This document shows, piece by piece, positions 34,181 to 45,413 of a stretch of DNA of 64,000 nt (positions are counted from its first letter, which is position 1; every line of letters starts with the position of its first letter). Where the stretch lies: NCBI GenBank assembly GCA_963743795.1, contig CAVUQZ010000004.1:339686-403685 (forward strand), in the 5' to 3' direction. The position numbers and the translations under genes are program-made. The notes below the pieces were generated by a model that did not search any database, was not told where the DNA came from, and was given only the letters and a program-made list of their open reading frames with translations. The stretch is from an uncultured Chloroflexia bacterium. Its GTDB lineage: Bacteria; Chloroflexota; Limnocylindria; Limnocylindrales; CSP1-4.

Positions 34181-35254
34181 ATGGCGATGATCGAGCGAGG
34201 GGCCGAGGCCCGAGCAACCAACGGCGAGCGGTCCGTCGAGCGCACCAAGGCCGTCGACGCCGCGATCCTGTCGATCGAGAAGCAGTTCGGTCGCGGCTCG
34301 ATCATGCGCCTCGGCTCCTCCGAGCGTCAGGCTGTCGACTTCATCCCCACGGGCTCGATCGCCCTGGATCTGGCCCTCGGCGTCGGCGGGATACCCGCGC
34401 GGCCGCATGACGGAGATCTTCGGGCCCGAGTCTTCGGGCAAGACAACGCTCTGCCAGCACGTCCTGGCTGAGGCTCAGAAGAGGGGCGGCGTAGTCGCGT
34501 TCATCGACGTCGAGCACGCCCTGGACCCGGGCTACGCTCGCGCCTGCGGCGTCAACGTGGACGATCTGCTCGTCAGCCAGCCGGACACCGGCGAGGACGC
34601 GCTCCAGATCACCGAGACCCTCATCCGGTCCGGCGGCGTGGATTGCGTCGTCCTGGACTCGGTCGCCGCTCTCGTGCCCAAGGCCGAGATCGAAGGCGAG
34701 ATGGGCGACTCGTTCGTCGGCATCCAGGCCCGCCTCATGAGCCAGGCCCTGCGCAAGCTGGCCGGCGTCGTCAGCCGCTCGAACACCGCCCTGGTCTTCA
34801 CCAACCAGCTGCGCGAGAAGATCGGCGTCATGTTCGGCAACCCCGAGGTCACGCCCGGCGGCCGCGCCCTCAAGTTCTACGCCAGCGTCCGGCTCGACAT
34901 CCGGCGCATCGAGACGATCAAGGTCGGCACGGAGTCGGTCGGCAACCGCGTCCGGGTCAAGGTCGTCAAGAACAAGGTCGCGCCGCCGTTCCGCGTCGCC
35001 GAGTTCGACATCATGTTCGGCGAGGGAATCTCCGCGCGAGGGCGGCCTGCTGGACGTCGGCGTGGCCATGAGCATCGTCAGCCAAGACCGGCGCCTGGTT
35101 CACCTTCGGCGAGACCCGCCTGGGCCAGGGCCGCGAGGCCGCCAAGGAGTTCCTCAAGGGCAACCCGGACATCTCGGCCGAGGTCGAGAAGCAGATCCGG
35201 GGCAAGATGTCCGAGGTCTCCCTGCCCGTCGAAGGGATCGAAGAGGCCGAATAG
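34181..35254 (+). CDS. recA: Recombinase RecA (frameshifts near 34395, 35040 and 35080)
   Basis: [50 protein letters not shown] and KNKVAPPF. Confidence 0.96.
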
Positions 35255-39524: not shown

Positions 39525-41227
39525 CCGTTCGACCGGCAGGTCTCACGGCGCCGCTCACGACGCTGCGGCCGGCCTTCGCGCCCGGGCTCGCACCAGGGCT
39601 CGCGCCCACGGCCGCACCTCCTGCCGTGGATCCGGAGGTGGCCGAGTTTCGGCCGGAGCCGCGAAGCCTGCCCAGCTTCCACGTCTGGACCCTGGGCTGC
39701 CAGATGAACCAGAGCGACTCCGAGGAGATGGCCGGCCAGCTCCTCGCCGCCGGCTGCATTCGCGCGCCATCCCTGGAGGCGGCGGATCTGGTCGTCATCA
39801 ATACCTGCGCCGTCCGCGAACACGCCGAGGCCAAGGTGATCGGCCGCCAGGGCATGCTCGCCGAGCTCAAGCGAGCCCGGCCGGGGATGCGCGTCGTGCT
39901 CACCGGCTGCGGCGTCCGCGAGGCCGAGCGGGCGGGCCTGGCACGCCGCTTCCCGGCCGTCGACATGTTCCTCCGTCCCGACGAGGAGCCCGAGCTTGCG
40001 CTCCGTCTGGGCCTGGTTTCCGCGCAGGCGCCGATCGGCCTCCAGACGGTCGCCACGGCCTCCACGACCGTCCTTGGCGGCAGGCCGGTCAGCGCGGCCG
40101 ATCGCCTGGCCGCGGGCCGCGCCACGGCCCTCTCGGAAGCCAGGGTGGCCCGTTCCTCGACGATCTCGGCCTGGCTGCCGATCGTCTACGGCTGCGACAA
40201 GACCTGCACCTACTGCATCGTGCCGTTCAGCCGCGGTCCGGAGCGGAGCCGCCCCTTCGACGACATCGTGGCCGAGGCGCGCCAGATCGCCGCCGAGCAC
40301 TTCGCCGAGCTGACCCTGCTCGGCCAGAACGTCAACAGCTACGGCCACGACCTGCCCGCGGAGGAGCGCTTTGGGCACATCGACACGCAGCGCTGGGGCG
40401 GTCGCAAGCTCGACCTGCGGGCCCGGCCCGACCTCGCGGAGCTGCTGCGCGCCATAGACTCGATTCGCGACGCATCCGGCCGGCCCGCGATTCCACGGCT
40501 TCGCTTCATAACCTCGCATCCCTGGGACCTCTCGGACAGGCTGATCGAGGCGATGGCCGAATGCCCGGGCGTCTGCGAGCACCTGCACCTGCCGATTCAA
40601 TCGGGTGACGACGCGATGCTGCAGCGGATGGGTCGCCAGTACACCGTCGAGCACTACCGCGAGCGCCTGGCCCGCATCAGGGCTGCCGTGCCGGGGATCG
40701 CCATCTCGACCGACGTCATCGTCGGCTTCTGCGGCGAGACCGAAGCGCAGTTCCAGGCGACCTTGCGCGTCCTCGAGGAGATCCGCTACGACACGGTCTT
40801 CGCGGCCGCCTACTCTCCGCGACCGGGGACTCCCGCGCTGCGAATGGCCGACGACGTACCGGCGGCGGACAAACGCCGGCGCCTGAACGAGCTCCTGGCC
40901 CGCCAGGAGGCGATCGGCCTGGAGCTGAATCGCGCCTGGCTCGGCCGCGAGGTAGAGGTTCTGGTCGAGCGGCTCACCCCGCCCCGACGTGCGGCCGTCG
41001 TAGACGACCCGGCGTATGCCGACATCGAGGACGCCGACGCGGGCGTTCCGGCTCTGGCCGGCACGGCGGGGCAGGGGAGCGTTGCCCTGGCCGGCCGGAC
41101 TCGCCACAACAAGCTCGTGCACCTGGCCGGCGACCCTTCGCTGGTCGGGCGGGCCGTCACGGTCCGCGTGGAGTACGCCGGCCCGTTCGCGCTCCGCGGG
41201 CGCGTCGTCGACGCAGCAACTGAGTGA
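39521..41227 (+). CDS. miaB: tRNA-2-methylthio-N6-dimethylallyladenosine synthase
   Basis: TLGCQMN, NTCAVRE, GCDKTCTYC radical SAM motif, LLGQNVNSYG and TRAM domain. Confidence 0.95.
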   Translation: MTVRPAGLTAPLTTLRPAFAPGLAPGLAPTAAPPAVDPEVAEFRPEPRSLPSFHVWTLGCQMNQSDSEEMAGQLLAAGCIRAPSLEAADLVVINTCAVREHAEAKVIGRQGMLAELKRARPGMRVVLTGCGVREAERAGLARRFPAVDMFLRPDEEPELALRLGLVSAQAPIGLQTVATASTTVLGGRPVSAADRLAAGRATALSEARVARSSTISAWLPIVYGCDKTCTYCIVPFSRGPERSRPFDDIVAEARQIAAEHFAELTLLGQNVNSYGHDLPAEERFGHIDTQRWGGRKLDLRARPDLAELLRAIDSIRDASGRPAIPRLRFITSHPWDLSDRLIEAMAECPGVCEHLHLPIQSGDDAMLQRMGRQYTVEHYRERLARIRAAVPGIAISTDVIVGFCGETEAQFQATLRVLEEIRYDTVFAAAYSPRPGTPALRMADDVPAADKRRRLNELLARQEAIGLELNRAWLGREVEVLVERLTPPRRAAVVDDPAYADIEDADAGVPALAGTAGQGSVALAGRTRHNKLVHLAGDPSLVGRAVTVRVEYAGPFALRGRVVDAATE

Positions 41228-42180
41228 CCGCGCCCGCGCCACCGCCCCTGGTCGTGCTGGCCGGCGCCACCGCGACGGGCAAGACCGCTCTGTCGCTGAC
41301 GCTCGCTGAATCCCTCCTGGCGCGCGGCATCCCCGCCGAGATCGTCTCGGCCGATTCGCGCCAGGTCTACCGGGGCATGGACATCGGCACGGCCAAGGCC
41401 GGGCCACAGGAGCGGGCCCGGGTCCCTCATCATTGCCTCGATCTGGTAGACCCGGACGCCGCGTTCAGCGTCGCCGACTACTCGCGGCATGCCGCTCTGG
41501 CGCTCGTCGGGATCGCGGAACGCGGCGCCGTGGCACTGCTGGTCGGCGGCACCGGGTTCTACTTGCGGGCCGTGGCTCGCGGGATGGCCGTGGACCAGCT
41601 GCCGTGGGACCTGGGCGTGCGCGCGGAGATAGAGGCCGCTCTCGAGGGCGGTGGCCTGGCCCCGCTGGTCGCGGAATTGCGCCGCGTGGCCCCGGTCCGG
41701 GCCGCCGCGATAGACCAACGCAACCCGCGGCGCGTGGTCAGGGCCCTCGAGATCGCCCGTCTCCAGGGTGACGCGCCACTGCCTGAGCCCCGTGGCTACG
41801 GCAGGCCCGTCCTCTGGCTGGGGCTGCGGGTGGAGCCTGCTGCACTGCGCGAGCGCATCCACGCCCGCGCCAGGGCCCAGTTCGACGCCGGCCTTGTCGA
41901 AGAGACACGGGCGCTGGTCGCGCGCTTCGATCCATCACTGCCGAGCTTCTCCGGCATCGGCTACGCCGAAGCACTGGCCGTCATCGAAGGCCGGCTGGGG
42001 CGCGAGGCCGCCATCGCCCAGGACGCGCGGCGCAACGTCCTCTTCGCCAACCGCCAGGCCACCTGGTTCCGCCACGAGCCAGATGTCCACTGGCTCGACG
42101 CCACGCGCGAACTGCCCCTCGAGCAGGCCTCCGAGGCAGTCGAGAGCTACCTGTCCATCTCCGCGGAGGCGACCCGGTGA
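41224..42180 (+). CDS. miaA: tRNA dimethylallyltransferase
   Basis: GATATGKT, SADSRQVYRGMDIGTAK, VGGTGFY and RQATWFR. Confidence 0.96.
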   Translation: MTAPAPPPLVVLAGATATGKTALSLTLAESLLARGIPAEIVSADSRQVYRGMDIGTAKAGPQERARVPHHCLDLVDPDAAFSVADYSRHAALALVGIAERGAVALLVGGTGFYLRAVARGMAVDQLPWDLGVRAEIEAALEGGGLAPLVAELRRVAPVRAAAIDQRNPRRVVRALEIARLQGDAPLPEPRGYGRPVLWLGLRVEPAALRERIHARARAQFDAGLVEETRALVARFDPSLPSFSGIGYAEALAVIEGRLGREAAIAQDARRNVLFANRQATWFRHEPDVHWLDATRELPLEQASEAVESYLSISAEATR

Positions 42181-42227
42181 CTCGTTCCGACCGGCTTCGC
42201 ACAGCGCTTCGGCTATCCTGAGCCGGT

Positions 42228-43553
<1,326 letters not shown>

Positions 43554-43615
43554 ACCGGCCTCGAGAGGCGCCCGGTGGATCGCACGTACGCGCTCGGAGC
43601 CACGGGCGGGGAGTA

Positions 43616-43763
43616 TAGAACGTCCGTTCTACGTTTACTCGCCGCAATCGGGCCATCGCCCCTACCCGTGTTGGCAGCACGTGGACAACTCCCAAAAGGA
43701 AGGCCCCCGTTTTCGAAAGTGGTGGATAAGCCACTTCCTGCGGCATCTGGCCGAGCCTATTGT
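43616..43763 (+). promoter_or_regulatory. Upstream control region of ncRNA A (SOS box, two DnaA-box-like sites, -10)
   Basis: TAGAACGTCCGTTCTA (43616-43631), GTGGACAAC (43681), GTGGATAAG (43722) and TATTGT (43758). The same spacing recurs at 44983-45129. Confidence 0.65.
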
Positions 43764-43770
43764 TCCTTCT

Positions 43771-44046
43771 GCCCGGAGGGGCCAGCGAGATCGTCACCGG
43801 CTCAGCGGTTTCGACGGAAACGGTGTAGCGATCTACCTGAAGGTCCAGGAGCCCGCAAGGGTTTCTGAGCCGGAAGGCCGGTCGTGAACCGCGGAAGTCG
43901 GAATGTAGAGGGTTGGTGGCAGTCCCGGCCAGTGGCCGGAGCGCAGGTCGCCGTTTGAGCGAGGAGTTTTCGGACCCCTTGTTCGCGGAGACCAAAGCGA
44001 CCGACACACGCGAGACCGCAGTCCGATCGAACAGGTTCCTTCGGGC
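43771..44046 (+). ncRNA. Putative structured ncRNA A (~276 nt), family not recognised
   Basis: 5' GCCCGGAGGGGCC pairs with 3' GGTTCCTTCGGGC. Multiple internal hairpins, including GCAA and TTCG loops. No credible ORF. Confidence 0.7.
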
Positions 44047-44206
44047 GCTTTCGTGTGTCCGGCTGGGCCAGCGTCCGGCAGCTGGGCCAGGCGCGCGCGC
44101 GCCGGCGCCGGCCCCCGGGAGCCGTGGCGCATCGAGATCCGGCCTGGCGGGGTAGGGGACCCAGGAGGTATCCTCGGCCGCGACCCACCCTGCAAGCAGG
44201 AAGTCG

Positions 44207-44965
44207 ATGCCGCACGTCAGCCCCAGCGTCTGGATCATCGTGCCGACGTACAACGAGCGGGAGAACGTCGGCCCGATCACCAACGCGATCCTGGGAGTCG
44301 TCCCCGAAGCCCACGTCCTGATCGTCGACGATGGATCTCCGGATGGCACGGGCGAGCTGGCCGACGATATGGCCGCCCGCAATCCCGCGATCGCGGTGCT
44401 GCACCGTCAGGCCAAGCAGGGCCTGGGGCGGGCCTATGTGGCGGCGTTCAAGGAGCTGCTCGCCGGCGACGCTGACATAGTCGTCCAGATCGATGCCGAC
44501 TTCAGCCACCCGGTGAGATATCTGCCCTCGCTGCTGGAACCGCTTCGCGCCGGCTCGGCGGACCTGGTCCTCGGGTCCCGCTACGTCAAAGGGGGCCAGA
44601 TCCCGCGCTGGAAGCTGCTCCGCCGTCTCGTCAGCCGCGGCGGCAGCGTCTTCGCCGGGGTCGTGCTCCTGCTCCCGTTCCGCGATCTCACCGGCGGCTT
44701 CAAGGCCTGGCGCGCGGATGCCCTCCGGGCGATCGACCTAGACCGGCTACATGCCGGTGGGTACGCCTTCCAGATCGAGACGACCTTCAAGGCCAGACTG
44801 GCCGGTGCGCGCATCGTGGAGGTCCCGATTACGTTCGAGGAACGCCGGGCGGGACAGTCGAAGATGAGCATGTCGATCTTCATGGAGGCCTTCCGGCTCG
44901 TGCTGGCGCTGCGGGTAACGAACCTTCGACGACGGCGCCGGGCGCTCCCTCGGCCAGCCGCCTGA
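44207..44965 (+). CDS. Polyprenol monophosphomannose synthase (GT2, Ppm1/DPM1-like)
   Basis: IVPTYNEREN, VDDGSPDGTG, QIDADFSH, GSRY, DLTGGFKAWR, GYAFQIE and EVPITFEERRAGQSKMS. Confidence 0.92.
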   Translation: MPHVSPSVWIIVPTYNERENVGPITNAILGVVPEAHVLIVDDGSPDGTGELADDMAARNPAIAVLHRQAKQGLGRAYVAAFKELLAGDADIVVQIDADFSHPVRYLPSLLEPLRAGSADLVLGSRYVKGGQIPRWKLLRRLVSRGGSVFAGVVLLLPFRDLTGGFKAWRADALRAIDLDRLHAGGYAFQIETTFKARLAGARIVEVPITFEERRAGQSKMSMSIFMEAFRLVLALRVTNLRRRRRALPRPAA

Positions 44966-44982
44966 CGGCCCCGGCGCGGACA

Positions 44983-45129
44983 GCACGTCCGTTCTGAAGC
45001 CCTTCGACGCGCCGAACGCTCGCGCAGGGCGACGTGTGTGCGAACCGTGGGAAAGGCCCTCCGACACACGCACGAGTTTCCAAAGACGTGGATAAGGCCG
45101 TTGGCGCCCAACCGCCGGACGGCTAGATT
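44983..45129 (+). promoter_or_regulatory. Upstream control region of ncRNA B (paralogous to 43616-43763)
   Basis: GCACGTCCGTTC (44983), GTGGGAAAG (45047), GTGGATAAG (45088) and TAGATT (45124). Confidence 0.65.
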
Positions 45130-45136
45130 CTCCTCA

Positions 45137-45218
45137 GCCCGGAGGGGCCACGAACAACCGAACGACTCGACCGATTCTCGGATCGGCCGAACGATGCGGG
45201 GTCGCGGTTCCTTCGGGC
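45137..45218 (+). ncRNA. Putative ncRNA B (~82 nt), same terminal helix as ncRNA A
   Basis: Identical 5' GCCCGGAGGGGCCA and 3' GGTTCCTTCGGGCG ends; internal hairpin CCGATT-CTCG-GATCGG. Confidence 0.65.
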
Positions 45219-45236
45219 GTTTCCGTATCCGTCACG

Positions 45237-45277
45237 CGCGGCCCGTCGCAGCCCAGCCGCCGGCGGGCCGCTTGCTG
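45237..45277 (+). terminator. Possible intrinsic terminator after ncRNA B
   Basis: GCGGCCCGTCG...CGGCGGGCCGC stem followed by TTGCTGT (weak U tract). Confidence 0.35.
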
Positions 45278-45371
45278 TCCGTCCGCCTCTAGTCGACCGA
45301 GGACGGGAACACGCACCAACCCAGCTCACGAGCCGCGAATCCACGTATGGTTGGGCCTGCTGGAGAAACGC

Positions 45372-45413
45372 TAGCCTAGTCCTCTTGACAGGCTATGCCT
45401 AGTCGGCTAGGCT
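45372..45413 (+). promoter_or_regulatory. hicAB promoter with palindromic operator
   Basis: TTGACA (45385), 17 nt spacer, TAGGCT (45408). Palindrome GCCTAG-TCGG-CTAGGC (45397-45412) overlaps the -10. Confidence 0.75.

Follow-up and report, generated by a model that had tools for sequence, protein, structure and literature searches.

A clamp-closed small RNA gene downstream of hflX in Limnocylindria and its siblings with DnaA-box-like promoter sites

Several bacterial small RNAs occur as sibling families whose genes share an upstream regulator site; Qrr1-5, RsmX/Y/Z, CsrB/C, GlmY/Z and the streptococcal csRNAs are examples. In the Y RNAs and the Y-like YrlA and YrlB, which are partners of the Ro/Rsr proteins, a conserved end helix carries a variable, modular body. 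DnaA, for its part, controls a number of promoters, among them those of dnaA itself, nrdAB, mioC and B. subtilis sda. The present analysis concerns an RNA gene in a 64,000-nucleotide (nt) stretch of DNA from an uncultured Chloroflexia bacterium of the class Limnocylindria (the whole stretch is referred to as the window hereafter). Window positions 43771 to about 44058 on the + strand are a stand-alone, structured, expressed small RNA gene of about 290 nt. The two ends of the RNA pair in a 13-base-pair (bp) helix, hereafter the clamp, and, as judged by comparison of genomes, this RNA (type A) is a member of an uncatalogued family of clamp-ended sibling small RNAs in soil and freshwater Chloroflexota.

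The locus shares some features with each of these systems and departs from each in others. Like the sibling families, it has several paralogous genes per genome, some of them in tandem, each with its own promoter and with a common site at a fixed distance. Unlike in those families, the bodies have no sequence in common, and only the 13-bp clamp, the tail and the promoter are shared; the site looks like a DnaA box instead of one for a response regulator or sigma-54, and no Hfq or CsrA partner is evident. The locus resembles the Y RNAs and YrlA in the conserved helix of the paired ends (paired in 100% of the cells of a 25-sequence alignment, with one covarying pair), in the variable body and in the copies lying side by side. 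However, a gene for a Ro protein (TROVE, PF05731) was found in 0 of 5 genomes of the taxonomic family in a search that detected the control genomes, no Rfam Y-RNA model matched, and the tRNA-like domain is unsupported. As at DnaA-controlled promoters, helically phased sites with the 8-nt core lie next to the −35 region, and such sites are also found in the dnaA-dnaN spacer and in the parA promoter; the product here, in contrast, is a small-RNA family, and DnaA binding is predicted from the sequence. Finally, the RNA is abundant, structured and stand-alone with paired ends, as are 6S RNA (RF00013) and, in the available excerpts of its descriptions (PMC4191392, PMC9130861), the actinobacterial Ms1, but it differs from both in having no rod with a central bubble, a genus-specific body, multiple dissimilar siblings and no model match.

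The gene itself is as follows.

43771..44058, + strand: small RNA gene of type A, which measures about 276 nt up to the clamp end and continues into a U-rich tail (conservation, fold z-score, metatranscriptome contigs)

In a DNA search of 40 relatives, type A was present in 24 of the 24 same-genus genomes with 71–90% identity, while no match was found in the 16 genomes of a small-genome sister family. The edges of conservation are sharp: most matches start at query position 31 (window 43770) and end at 44058-44065. A −10-like hexamer stands 7 nt upstream of the former edge and a U-rich tract lies at the latter, and the start site is accordingly placed near 43771; these positions were derived from conservation edges and signals, the contigs described below being weak evidence for the exact RNA ends. 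Since none of the four open reading frames overlapping the RNA (306, 235, 130 and 80 amino acids) belongs to a Pfam family and single-base insertions and deletions occur throughout the alignment of 25 homologues, the stretch is not coding.

Parts of a 551-nt query were found in 20 public runs (14 studies), 14 of the runs being recorded as RNA. Four metatranscriptome runs, each from a different study, were compared over 43300-45400. Their contigs cover 43779-44014, 43795-44027, 43792-44014 and 43783-44026, with 0 mismatches in three of them and 1 in the other. The depth was 120 for the contig in one case and 2364 for a 44-nt piece, without comparable cover of the flanks, where only a partial match of 32–34 nt inside the downstream glycosyltransferase gene was seen, in three of the four runs. 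That the RNA exists in nature as an isolated species is well supported by these contigs. For sibling B, a second family member described below, no contig cover was found in the four runs, an observation on contigs that cannot prove absence. In one contig (run X5), Illumina adapter sequence immediately precedes 43783, a position 12 nt into the RNA from its predicted 5′ end; the junction may mark where a fragment ended or where the RNA is processed.

The strength of the fold was examined against shuffled sequences. On the + strand, 43771-44062 has a minimum free energy (MFE) of −145.1 kcal/mol as against −120.1 ± 5.56 kcal/mol for 200 dinucleotide shuffles (z −4.50), and 0 of the 200 shuffles were as good; on the − strand, z was −0.72 and 46 of the 200 shuffles were as good. 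The folding signal is therefore real and strand-specific. A consensus structure was obtained with RNAalifold from 25 of the 26 full homologue matches, the copy truncated by a contig end being left out. It comprises 77 pairs, paired in 95.4% of cells. Both sides change in seventeen of these pairs; 1 of 500 shuffles had at least as many, and for the other four measures the count was 0 of 500. When the 3′ partners were slid by 1–3 columns as a control, pairing fell to 33–48%. According to this model, the supported fold is the end clamp, its GAUCG/CGAUC extension and a multi-helix junction with four arms, namely a GCAA-capped long rod, a near-invariant hairpin, a UUCG-capped long hairpin and a small hairpin.

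43770..43782, + strand: clamp helix P1, 5′ strand (U)GCCCGGAGGGGC, 13 pairs with 44035-44047
44035..44047, + strand: clamp helix P1, 3′ strand GUUCCUUCGGGCG, with two conserved G·U wobble pairs
43789..43793, + strand: helix P2, GAUCG/CGAUC, 5 pairs with 44024-44028
43795..43918, + strand: long irregular rod capped by a GCAA loop (43855-43858), consensus helices 3–7
43919..43944, + strand: near-invariant hairpin CCGG-CCAGU-GGCCGG with flanking pairs, helix 8, 98.5% paired
43942..43999, + strand: long 3′ hairpin capped by UUCG (43969-43972), helices 9 and 10, 22 pairs, for which an alternative fold exists
44010-44019, + strand: small hairpin of the consensus fold

In the clamp, one pair changes from GC to AU in 4 of the 25 sequences. 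The clamp is the MFE pairing of this genome's own sequence once the transcript ends inside the U-tract, and in the 292-nt version the clamp fold lies only 2.6 kcal/mol above the MFE. The rod has 33 pairs, each of its helices being 88–99% paired, and 13 of its pairs change on both sides. Many of the loop and junction bases are invariant. The preliminary description of this DNA, which had been made from the single sequence, quoted elements that all occur where it placed them, and several of its helices are retained: the GATCG/CGATC extension of the terminal helix (99.2% paired, with one compensatory pair, GC to AU in 2 sequences), the long UUCG-capped hairpin in the 3′ half (helix 10; 19 pairs, 90.4% paired, 5 changed on both sides) and the CCGG/CCGG hairpin at 43925-43939 (98% paired and almost invariant). 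As 4 of the 8 pairs of helix 8 never vary and none covaries, it is conservation that argues for this last hairpin.

The centerpiece of that description, a tRNA-sized five-way junction, fared differently. A nine-pair stem enclosing four hairpins can be drawn exactly in this one sequence, and homolog covariation had been named as a check on it; compensatory changes were indeed found, but in the other fold described above. In the 25 homologues, the 27 pairs of the five-way junction form in only 75.1% of cells. Its closing stem CCGGCTCAG/CTGAGCCGG is 69.8% paired, with one pair formed in only 4 of the 25 sequences, and the GTAG/CTAC and CTG/CAG hairpins are 60.7% and 61.3% paired, respectively. 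The GTTTC/GAAAC hairpin shows no compensatory change, and its 5′ strand covaries with a distant partner instead. The one hairpin of the junction that enters the consensus is GAGCCC-GCAA-GGGTTT, which is 88% paired and has 3 pairs with changes in both strands. The case is a caution: an attractive local fold drawn on a single sequence was overturned by covariation. That the RNA is structured had thus been recognized correctly, while the earlier account mentioned neither the clamp formed by the ends nor the distinctive promoter, nor that the RNA belongs to a multi-copy family.

The RNA was also compared with known RNA families. With Rfam 15 (4227 models), 0 matches were obtained in the whole window at the gathering score; at E ≤ 10, the region 43400-44300 gave only an unrelated chance match of 25 nt on the − strand outside the RNA, and at E ≤ 1 three other loci gave nothing relevant. 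ARAGORN reported 0 tRNA or tmRNA genes in 43500-45400. Literature searches on small RNA in Limnocylindria, 6S RNA in Chloroflexi and noncoding RNA of CSP1-4 yielded nothing relevant, nor was a description of this small-RNA family or of DnaA-box-driven small RNAs found, an unrelated review being all that came up for DnaA boxes and supplementary files being outside the scope of these searches. Repeat cluster #8,581 of Chloroflexota, from a 2026 preprint, was considered as this element and set aside: in the available part of the preprint, the cluster is an array of TAGTC with an 8-nt period.

Full-length type A is confined to this genus among the genomes searched with BLAST (150 other genomes of the taxonomic family, including the unpublished G121). 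Outside the genus, only the last ~30 nt were matched, often several times per genome and sometimes in tandem. These matches led to the sibling family, and the same 5′ motif was found 70–210 nt upstream of them. The loci fetched up to that point together with this genome provide 71 distinct instances: 32 are short (70–86 nt), 14 are medium (145–209 nt) and 25 are type A. The bodies, of 70–280 nt, are wholly different between types, and the clamp, the U-rich tail and the promoter are all that the siblings have in common. The bodies are built from recurring hairpins (CUUG-capped stems, 13-nt GAGAUCRCAUCAA loops and GCAA loops), and in some of them a direct repeat flanks the central hairpin. The clamp pattern of the family is GCCYGRAGGGGYC / GGUUCCYYYGGGC, by which 43771-43783 pairs with 44034-44046 in the present RNA. 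C would also have satisfied the pattern, but in 123 of the 124 forward instances the 3′ strand has GGUU and not GGCU, which gives two G·U pairs.

The exact clamp pattern was found in 81 of the 91 genomes of one Limnocylindria family (f1), with 0 in the reversed-pattern control. It was found in 0 of 12, 0 of 92, 0 of 103 and 0 of 2 genomes of four sister families f2–f5 (0 of 209), an absence that refers to exact patterns, so that divergent members outside f1 may be missed. A scan of the whole collection with the promoter plus the 5′ motif gave at least 118 stretches, and 77 of the 80 listed carry the labels Chloroflexi/Chloroflexota, Chloroflexia, Limnocylindria/-ales or Anaerolinea-type. In two sister families, the DNA downstream of hflX leads straight into other genes, and neither box nor module was found there at 28 loci, 3 of which offer only 0–165 nt (the unpublished genomes G368, G251, G297 and G262 are included). 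At four loci of other genera (L042, L047, L055 and L038), two or three short siblings lie in tandem downstream of hflX, 250–400 nt apart. Each of these has its own box pair and promoter, and their central hairpin AGGUG-CUUG-CAUCU occurs with compensatory variants.

This genome has four siblings, A to D; those other than A are listed here.

45137..45228, + strand: sibling B small RNA, 82 nt (45137-45218) plus tail, just past the glycosyltransferase gene
44983-45129, + strand: sibling B promoter, with box GTGGATAA at 45088-45095, −10 element TAGATT at 45124-45129 and LexA-like GCAC-N4-GTTC at 44983-44994
other contig: sibling C, 74 nt
other contig: sibling D, 176 nt

The fold of sibling B (z −3.04) has the same clamp, and the same-genus loci contain this sibling as well; the motif CCGAACGA stands on both sides of its central hairpin. 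The neighbors of siblings C and D (a cytosine/purine permease gene, a convergent groEL and a LuxR/TPR regulator gene) gave no functional lead.

The regions immediately outside the RNA carry the following elements.

43681..43688, + strand: distal DnaA-box-like site GTGGACAA (reverse complement of TTGTCCAC)
43722..43729, + strand: proximal DnaA-box-like site GTGGATAA, next to the −35 region
43758..43763, + strand: −10 element TATTGT, at the TAnnnT position of the family
44048..44059, + strand: U/G-rich tail CUUUCGUGUGUC, directly after the clamp, terminator-like

These elements recur at similar positions throughout the family. TAnnnT lies 5–9 nt before the 5′ G in 70 of the 71 members, and exactly 7 nt before it in 63. 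A proximal box GTGGAYAR is found at −46 to −51 in 67 of the 71 promoters; in type A of this genome, the first G of the RNA follows the end of the 9-nt box GTGGATAAG at a distance of exactly 40 nt. The distal box is present in 49 of the 71 promoters, at 41–42 nt (43 cases) or 32–33 nt (4 cases) from the proximal one, and these spacings correspond to four or three helical turns. GTGGAYAA is the reverse complement of the DnaA-box core TT(A/G)TCCAC (consensus TTATCCACA / TTGTCCACA), and both promoter sites match this 8-nt core. In the 12 nt after the clamp, family members have on average 6.0 T, whereas T accounts for 15.7% of the genome. The element CCCGTGTTGGCAG at 43665-43677, just upstream of the distal box, is kept in nearly all same-genus type A promoters.

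The same boxes occur beside dnaA, and one such region was delimited in this genome.

G000:C10:645812-646236 (L181): dnaA-dnaN spacer, with boxes at 645870-645919 and an AT-rich stretch near 646110-646150

This spacer, which is likely to be oriC, holds GGTGGATAAC twice plus the near-match TGTGGAGAA, 21 nt apart. At least one box was found at each of the 4 dnaA loci examined, and one of them has three boxes 20–22 nt apart. Five genomes contain 12 tandem box pairs, of which 6 are at sibling promoters, 3 are beside dnaA and one more has a 21-nt spacing; the control gave 0. This genome has six cases of a box and a −10 element standing at the family spacing: at siblings A, B and D, at the parA promoter, at one unknown transcript and at one site within a coding sequence. 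Upstream of the soj-like parA (G000:C4:700020-700063, L180), TTGTCCACA and TGTGGATAA are 34 nt apart, with a sibling-like layout from box to −10. The unknown transcript (G000:C1:292771-293000, L179) follows a sibling-like promoter composed of TTGTCCACA, CGTGGATAAC, TTGACG and TACTGT; it is G+C-rich, has neither a clamp nor an Rfam match, and may be another DnaA-box-linked RNA or a long leader.

In the genus of this genome, a further site is found upstream of the RNA.

43618..43629, strand not assigned: LexA-type (Cheo) box GAACGTCCGTTC, an exact GAAC-N4-GTTC palindrome about 150 nt upstream of the RNA start

Of 25 same-genus loci, 21 have the exact GAAC-N4-GTTC sequence at this position, with −10-like hexamers after it. 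A copy of the motif, CGAACGGGCGTTCT, precedes the lexA domain hit of this genome by 58 nt, and a relaxed LexA-type box precedes sibling B at the same distance in 15 of 20 congeners. The 12-nt LexA core is not enriched genome-wide (30 seen as against 24.4 expected). Together, these positions suggest that LexA binds the GAAC-N4-GTTC site and, from the −10-like hexamers, that a second promoter lies near it. A GAAC-N4-GTTC site also occurs about 2.7 kb upstream of a recA match. The latter, at window ~34247-35033 (G000:C4:373932-374718), consists of two overlapping pieces in different frames (118 and 384 amino acids); the split could be a frameshift or an assembly error.

Taking these observations together, we judge it fairly probable that type A is a stand-alone, abundant, clamp-closed sibling small RNA of ~290 nt that acts in trans, probably binds protein and is tied to the replication and DNA-damage state. 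In the proposed mechanism, DnaA, joined by LexA in this genus, would set the level of the RNA, whose synthesis would then track the state of replication initiation and DNA damage; the clamp plus the U-tail would serve as terminator hairpin and end protection, and the RNA would act in trans. The leaning toward protein binding comes from the fixed clamp with its tandem G·U wobble pairs (123 of 124 instances) and the many invariant junction and loop bases. It also comes from the size and complexity of the RNA, from the repeated hairpin-loop and flanking motifs of the siblings, which suit multimeric binders, and from the negative search result for Hfq in 5 genomes of the taxonomic family. That the invariant clamp and loops bind a protein, as a decoy or a scaffold, is put forward tentatively; a role as protein scaffold, which had been suggested previously, is plausible. 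We hold with considerably less confidence, and regard as doubtful, the bolder proposal that DnaA, with LexA in this genus, directly drives a regulon of abundant small RNAs whose clamp is the handle for a common protein. If the proposal were true, each sibling would deliver a different RNA body to one common partner, and a new class of ribonucleoprotein would couple the replication and DNA-damage state to post-transcriptional control in Chloroflexota. DnaA driving the family would in itself link the control of chromosome replication directly with small-RNA regulation. RNA regulators are almost unstudied in the Limnocylindria, a class that is widespread in soil, sediment and freshwater and for the most part uncultured, and the locus offers a concrete, testable case.

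Several observations weigh against this interpretation. Of the candidate partners, Ro was found in none of the 5 genomes and CsrA in only 1. The contigs show neither the ends, the strand nor the level of the RNA and stop short of the clamp on both sides, presumably because the clamp, being common to the siblings, breaks the assembly. The conservation of promoter and clamp among paralogues is partly due to common descent. In the 3′ domain, two folds are about equally supported, since the version with a single UUCG hairpin is 94.6% paired overall and has 20 covarying pairs (0 of 500 shuffles), and the outer register of this domain is unsettled. The 8-mer box is not enriched genome-wide (81 seen as against 71 expected), so that the case for DnaA is built on position, pairing and the dnaA-adjacent sites, and 2 of the 12 tandem box pairs are unexplained. 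A LexA site at −150 would be unable to repress the proximal promoter directly, and a second promoter is therefore needed. Finally, a scan for consensus promoters and terminators found no sigma-70 promoter and no + strand terminator at the RNA; its only terminator-like site lies upstream of the RNA on the − strand (43704-43719). The RNA end does not have the usual form of an intrinsic terminator, i.e., a short G+C-rich hairpin with a 3–8-nt loop and a T run. Because the hairpin here would be the whole clamp-closed RNA, it is the tail from which a terminator function is deduced.

The alternative that survives best is a base-pairing regulatory small RNA, in which the unpaired AAUGUAGAGGG, or CCGAACGA of sibling B, would serve as an Hfq-free seed for mRNAs and the clamp would only stabilize the RNA and terminate its transcription. 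The RNA is expressed by itself and has its own promoter-like and terminator-like signals, as such a regulator would, the siblings carry repeated single-stranded motifs beside the central hairpin, and sibling small-RNA families are mostly base-pairing regulators in the available excerpt of PMC4211561. We nevertheless consider this possibility rather unlikely. Seed regulators are not typically multi-helix RNAs of 290 nt in which many paired and loop bases are invariant, and a strictly fixed clamp sequence is unnecessary for stability alone. Moreover, the search for 10-mer complements stayed at the chance level, the best result being two matches of 11–12 nt as against ~0.4 estimated per 11-mer.

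A functional analogue of 6S RNA or Ms1, that is, an abundant RNA that binds RNA polymerase, is improbable. The niche looks vacant, in that the Rfam 6S model found nothing in 5 whole genomes of the taxonomic family while detecting the control genomes; the depth of cover without comparable flanks and the pairing of the two ends, the latter also a feature of 6S and of Ms1 as excerpted above, would fit as well. However, neither 6S nor any other Rfam family matched the locus even at E ≤ 10, and where 6S RNA would have a rod with a central bubble, the consensus has a multi-helix junction. In addition, a polymerase binder would be expected to keep its body, whereas the type A body occurs in one genus only and its siblings place different bodies on the same chassis.

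The position of the RNA brings up a further alternative, a cis-acting leader (riboswitch or attenuator) of the downstream gene. The RNA sits in a 653-nt gap between two genes.

42228..43553, + strand: HflX-type GTPase gene, upstream of the RNA (Pfam GTP-bdg_N, GTP-bdg_M, MMR_HSR1)
44207..44965, + strand: family 2 glycosyltransferase gene, downstream of the RNA (Pfam Glycos_transf_2)

It lies on the same strand as the glycosyltransferase gene, 145–160 nt upstream of it, and the order hflX, RNA, glycosyltransferase is kept, each flank being found in 25 of the 26 same-genus loci; the two misses are loci cut by contig ends. Still, such a leader is very improbable: a U-rich tail directly follows the clamp, and the RNA contigs of the four studies end before the glycosyltransferase gene. 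Sibling B, which has the same chassis, lies beyond the glycosyltransferase gene, other copies of the chassis are neighbors of unrelated genes or converge with groEL, different siblings follow hflX in other genera, and no riboswitch family matched.

That the RNA works as a tRNA mimic or ribozyme through a tRNA-like five-way junction is hardly tenable, in view of the covariation of the competing rod, of the ARAGORN result and of the lack of any match at the locus to a tRNA-like or self-cleaving ribozyme family in Rfam, also at E ≤ 10. The wider claim from which that reading had started, namely an evolved, complex RNA that is not a mere terminator, is borne out by the presence of the gene in all 24 congeners, by the covariation and by the isolated contigs of the four metatranscriptome studies.

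A minor observation concerns the genes preceding the RNA. The order in E. coli is miaA-hfq-hflX. At 41224-43553 of the window, miaA is followed directly by hflX without hfq between them, and the small-RNA genes come right after hflX.

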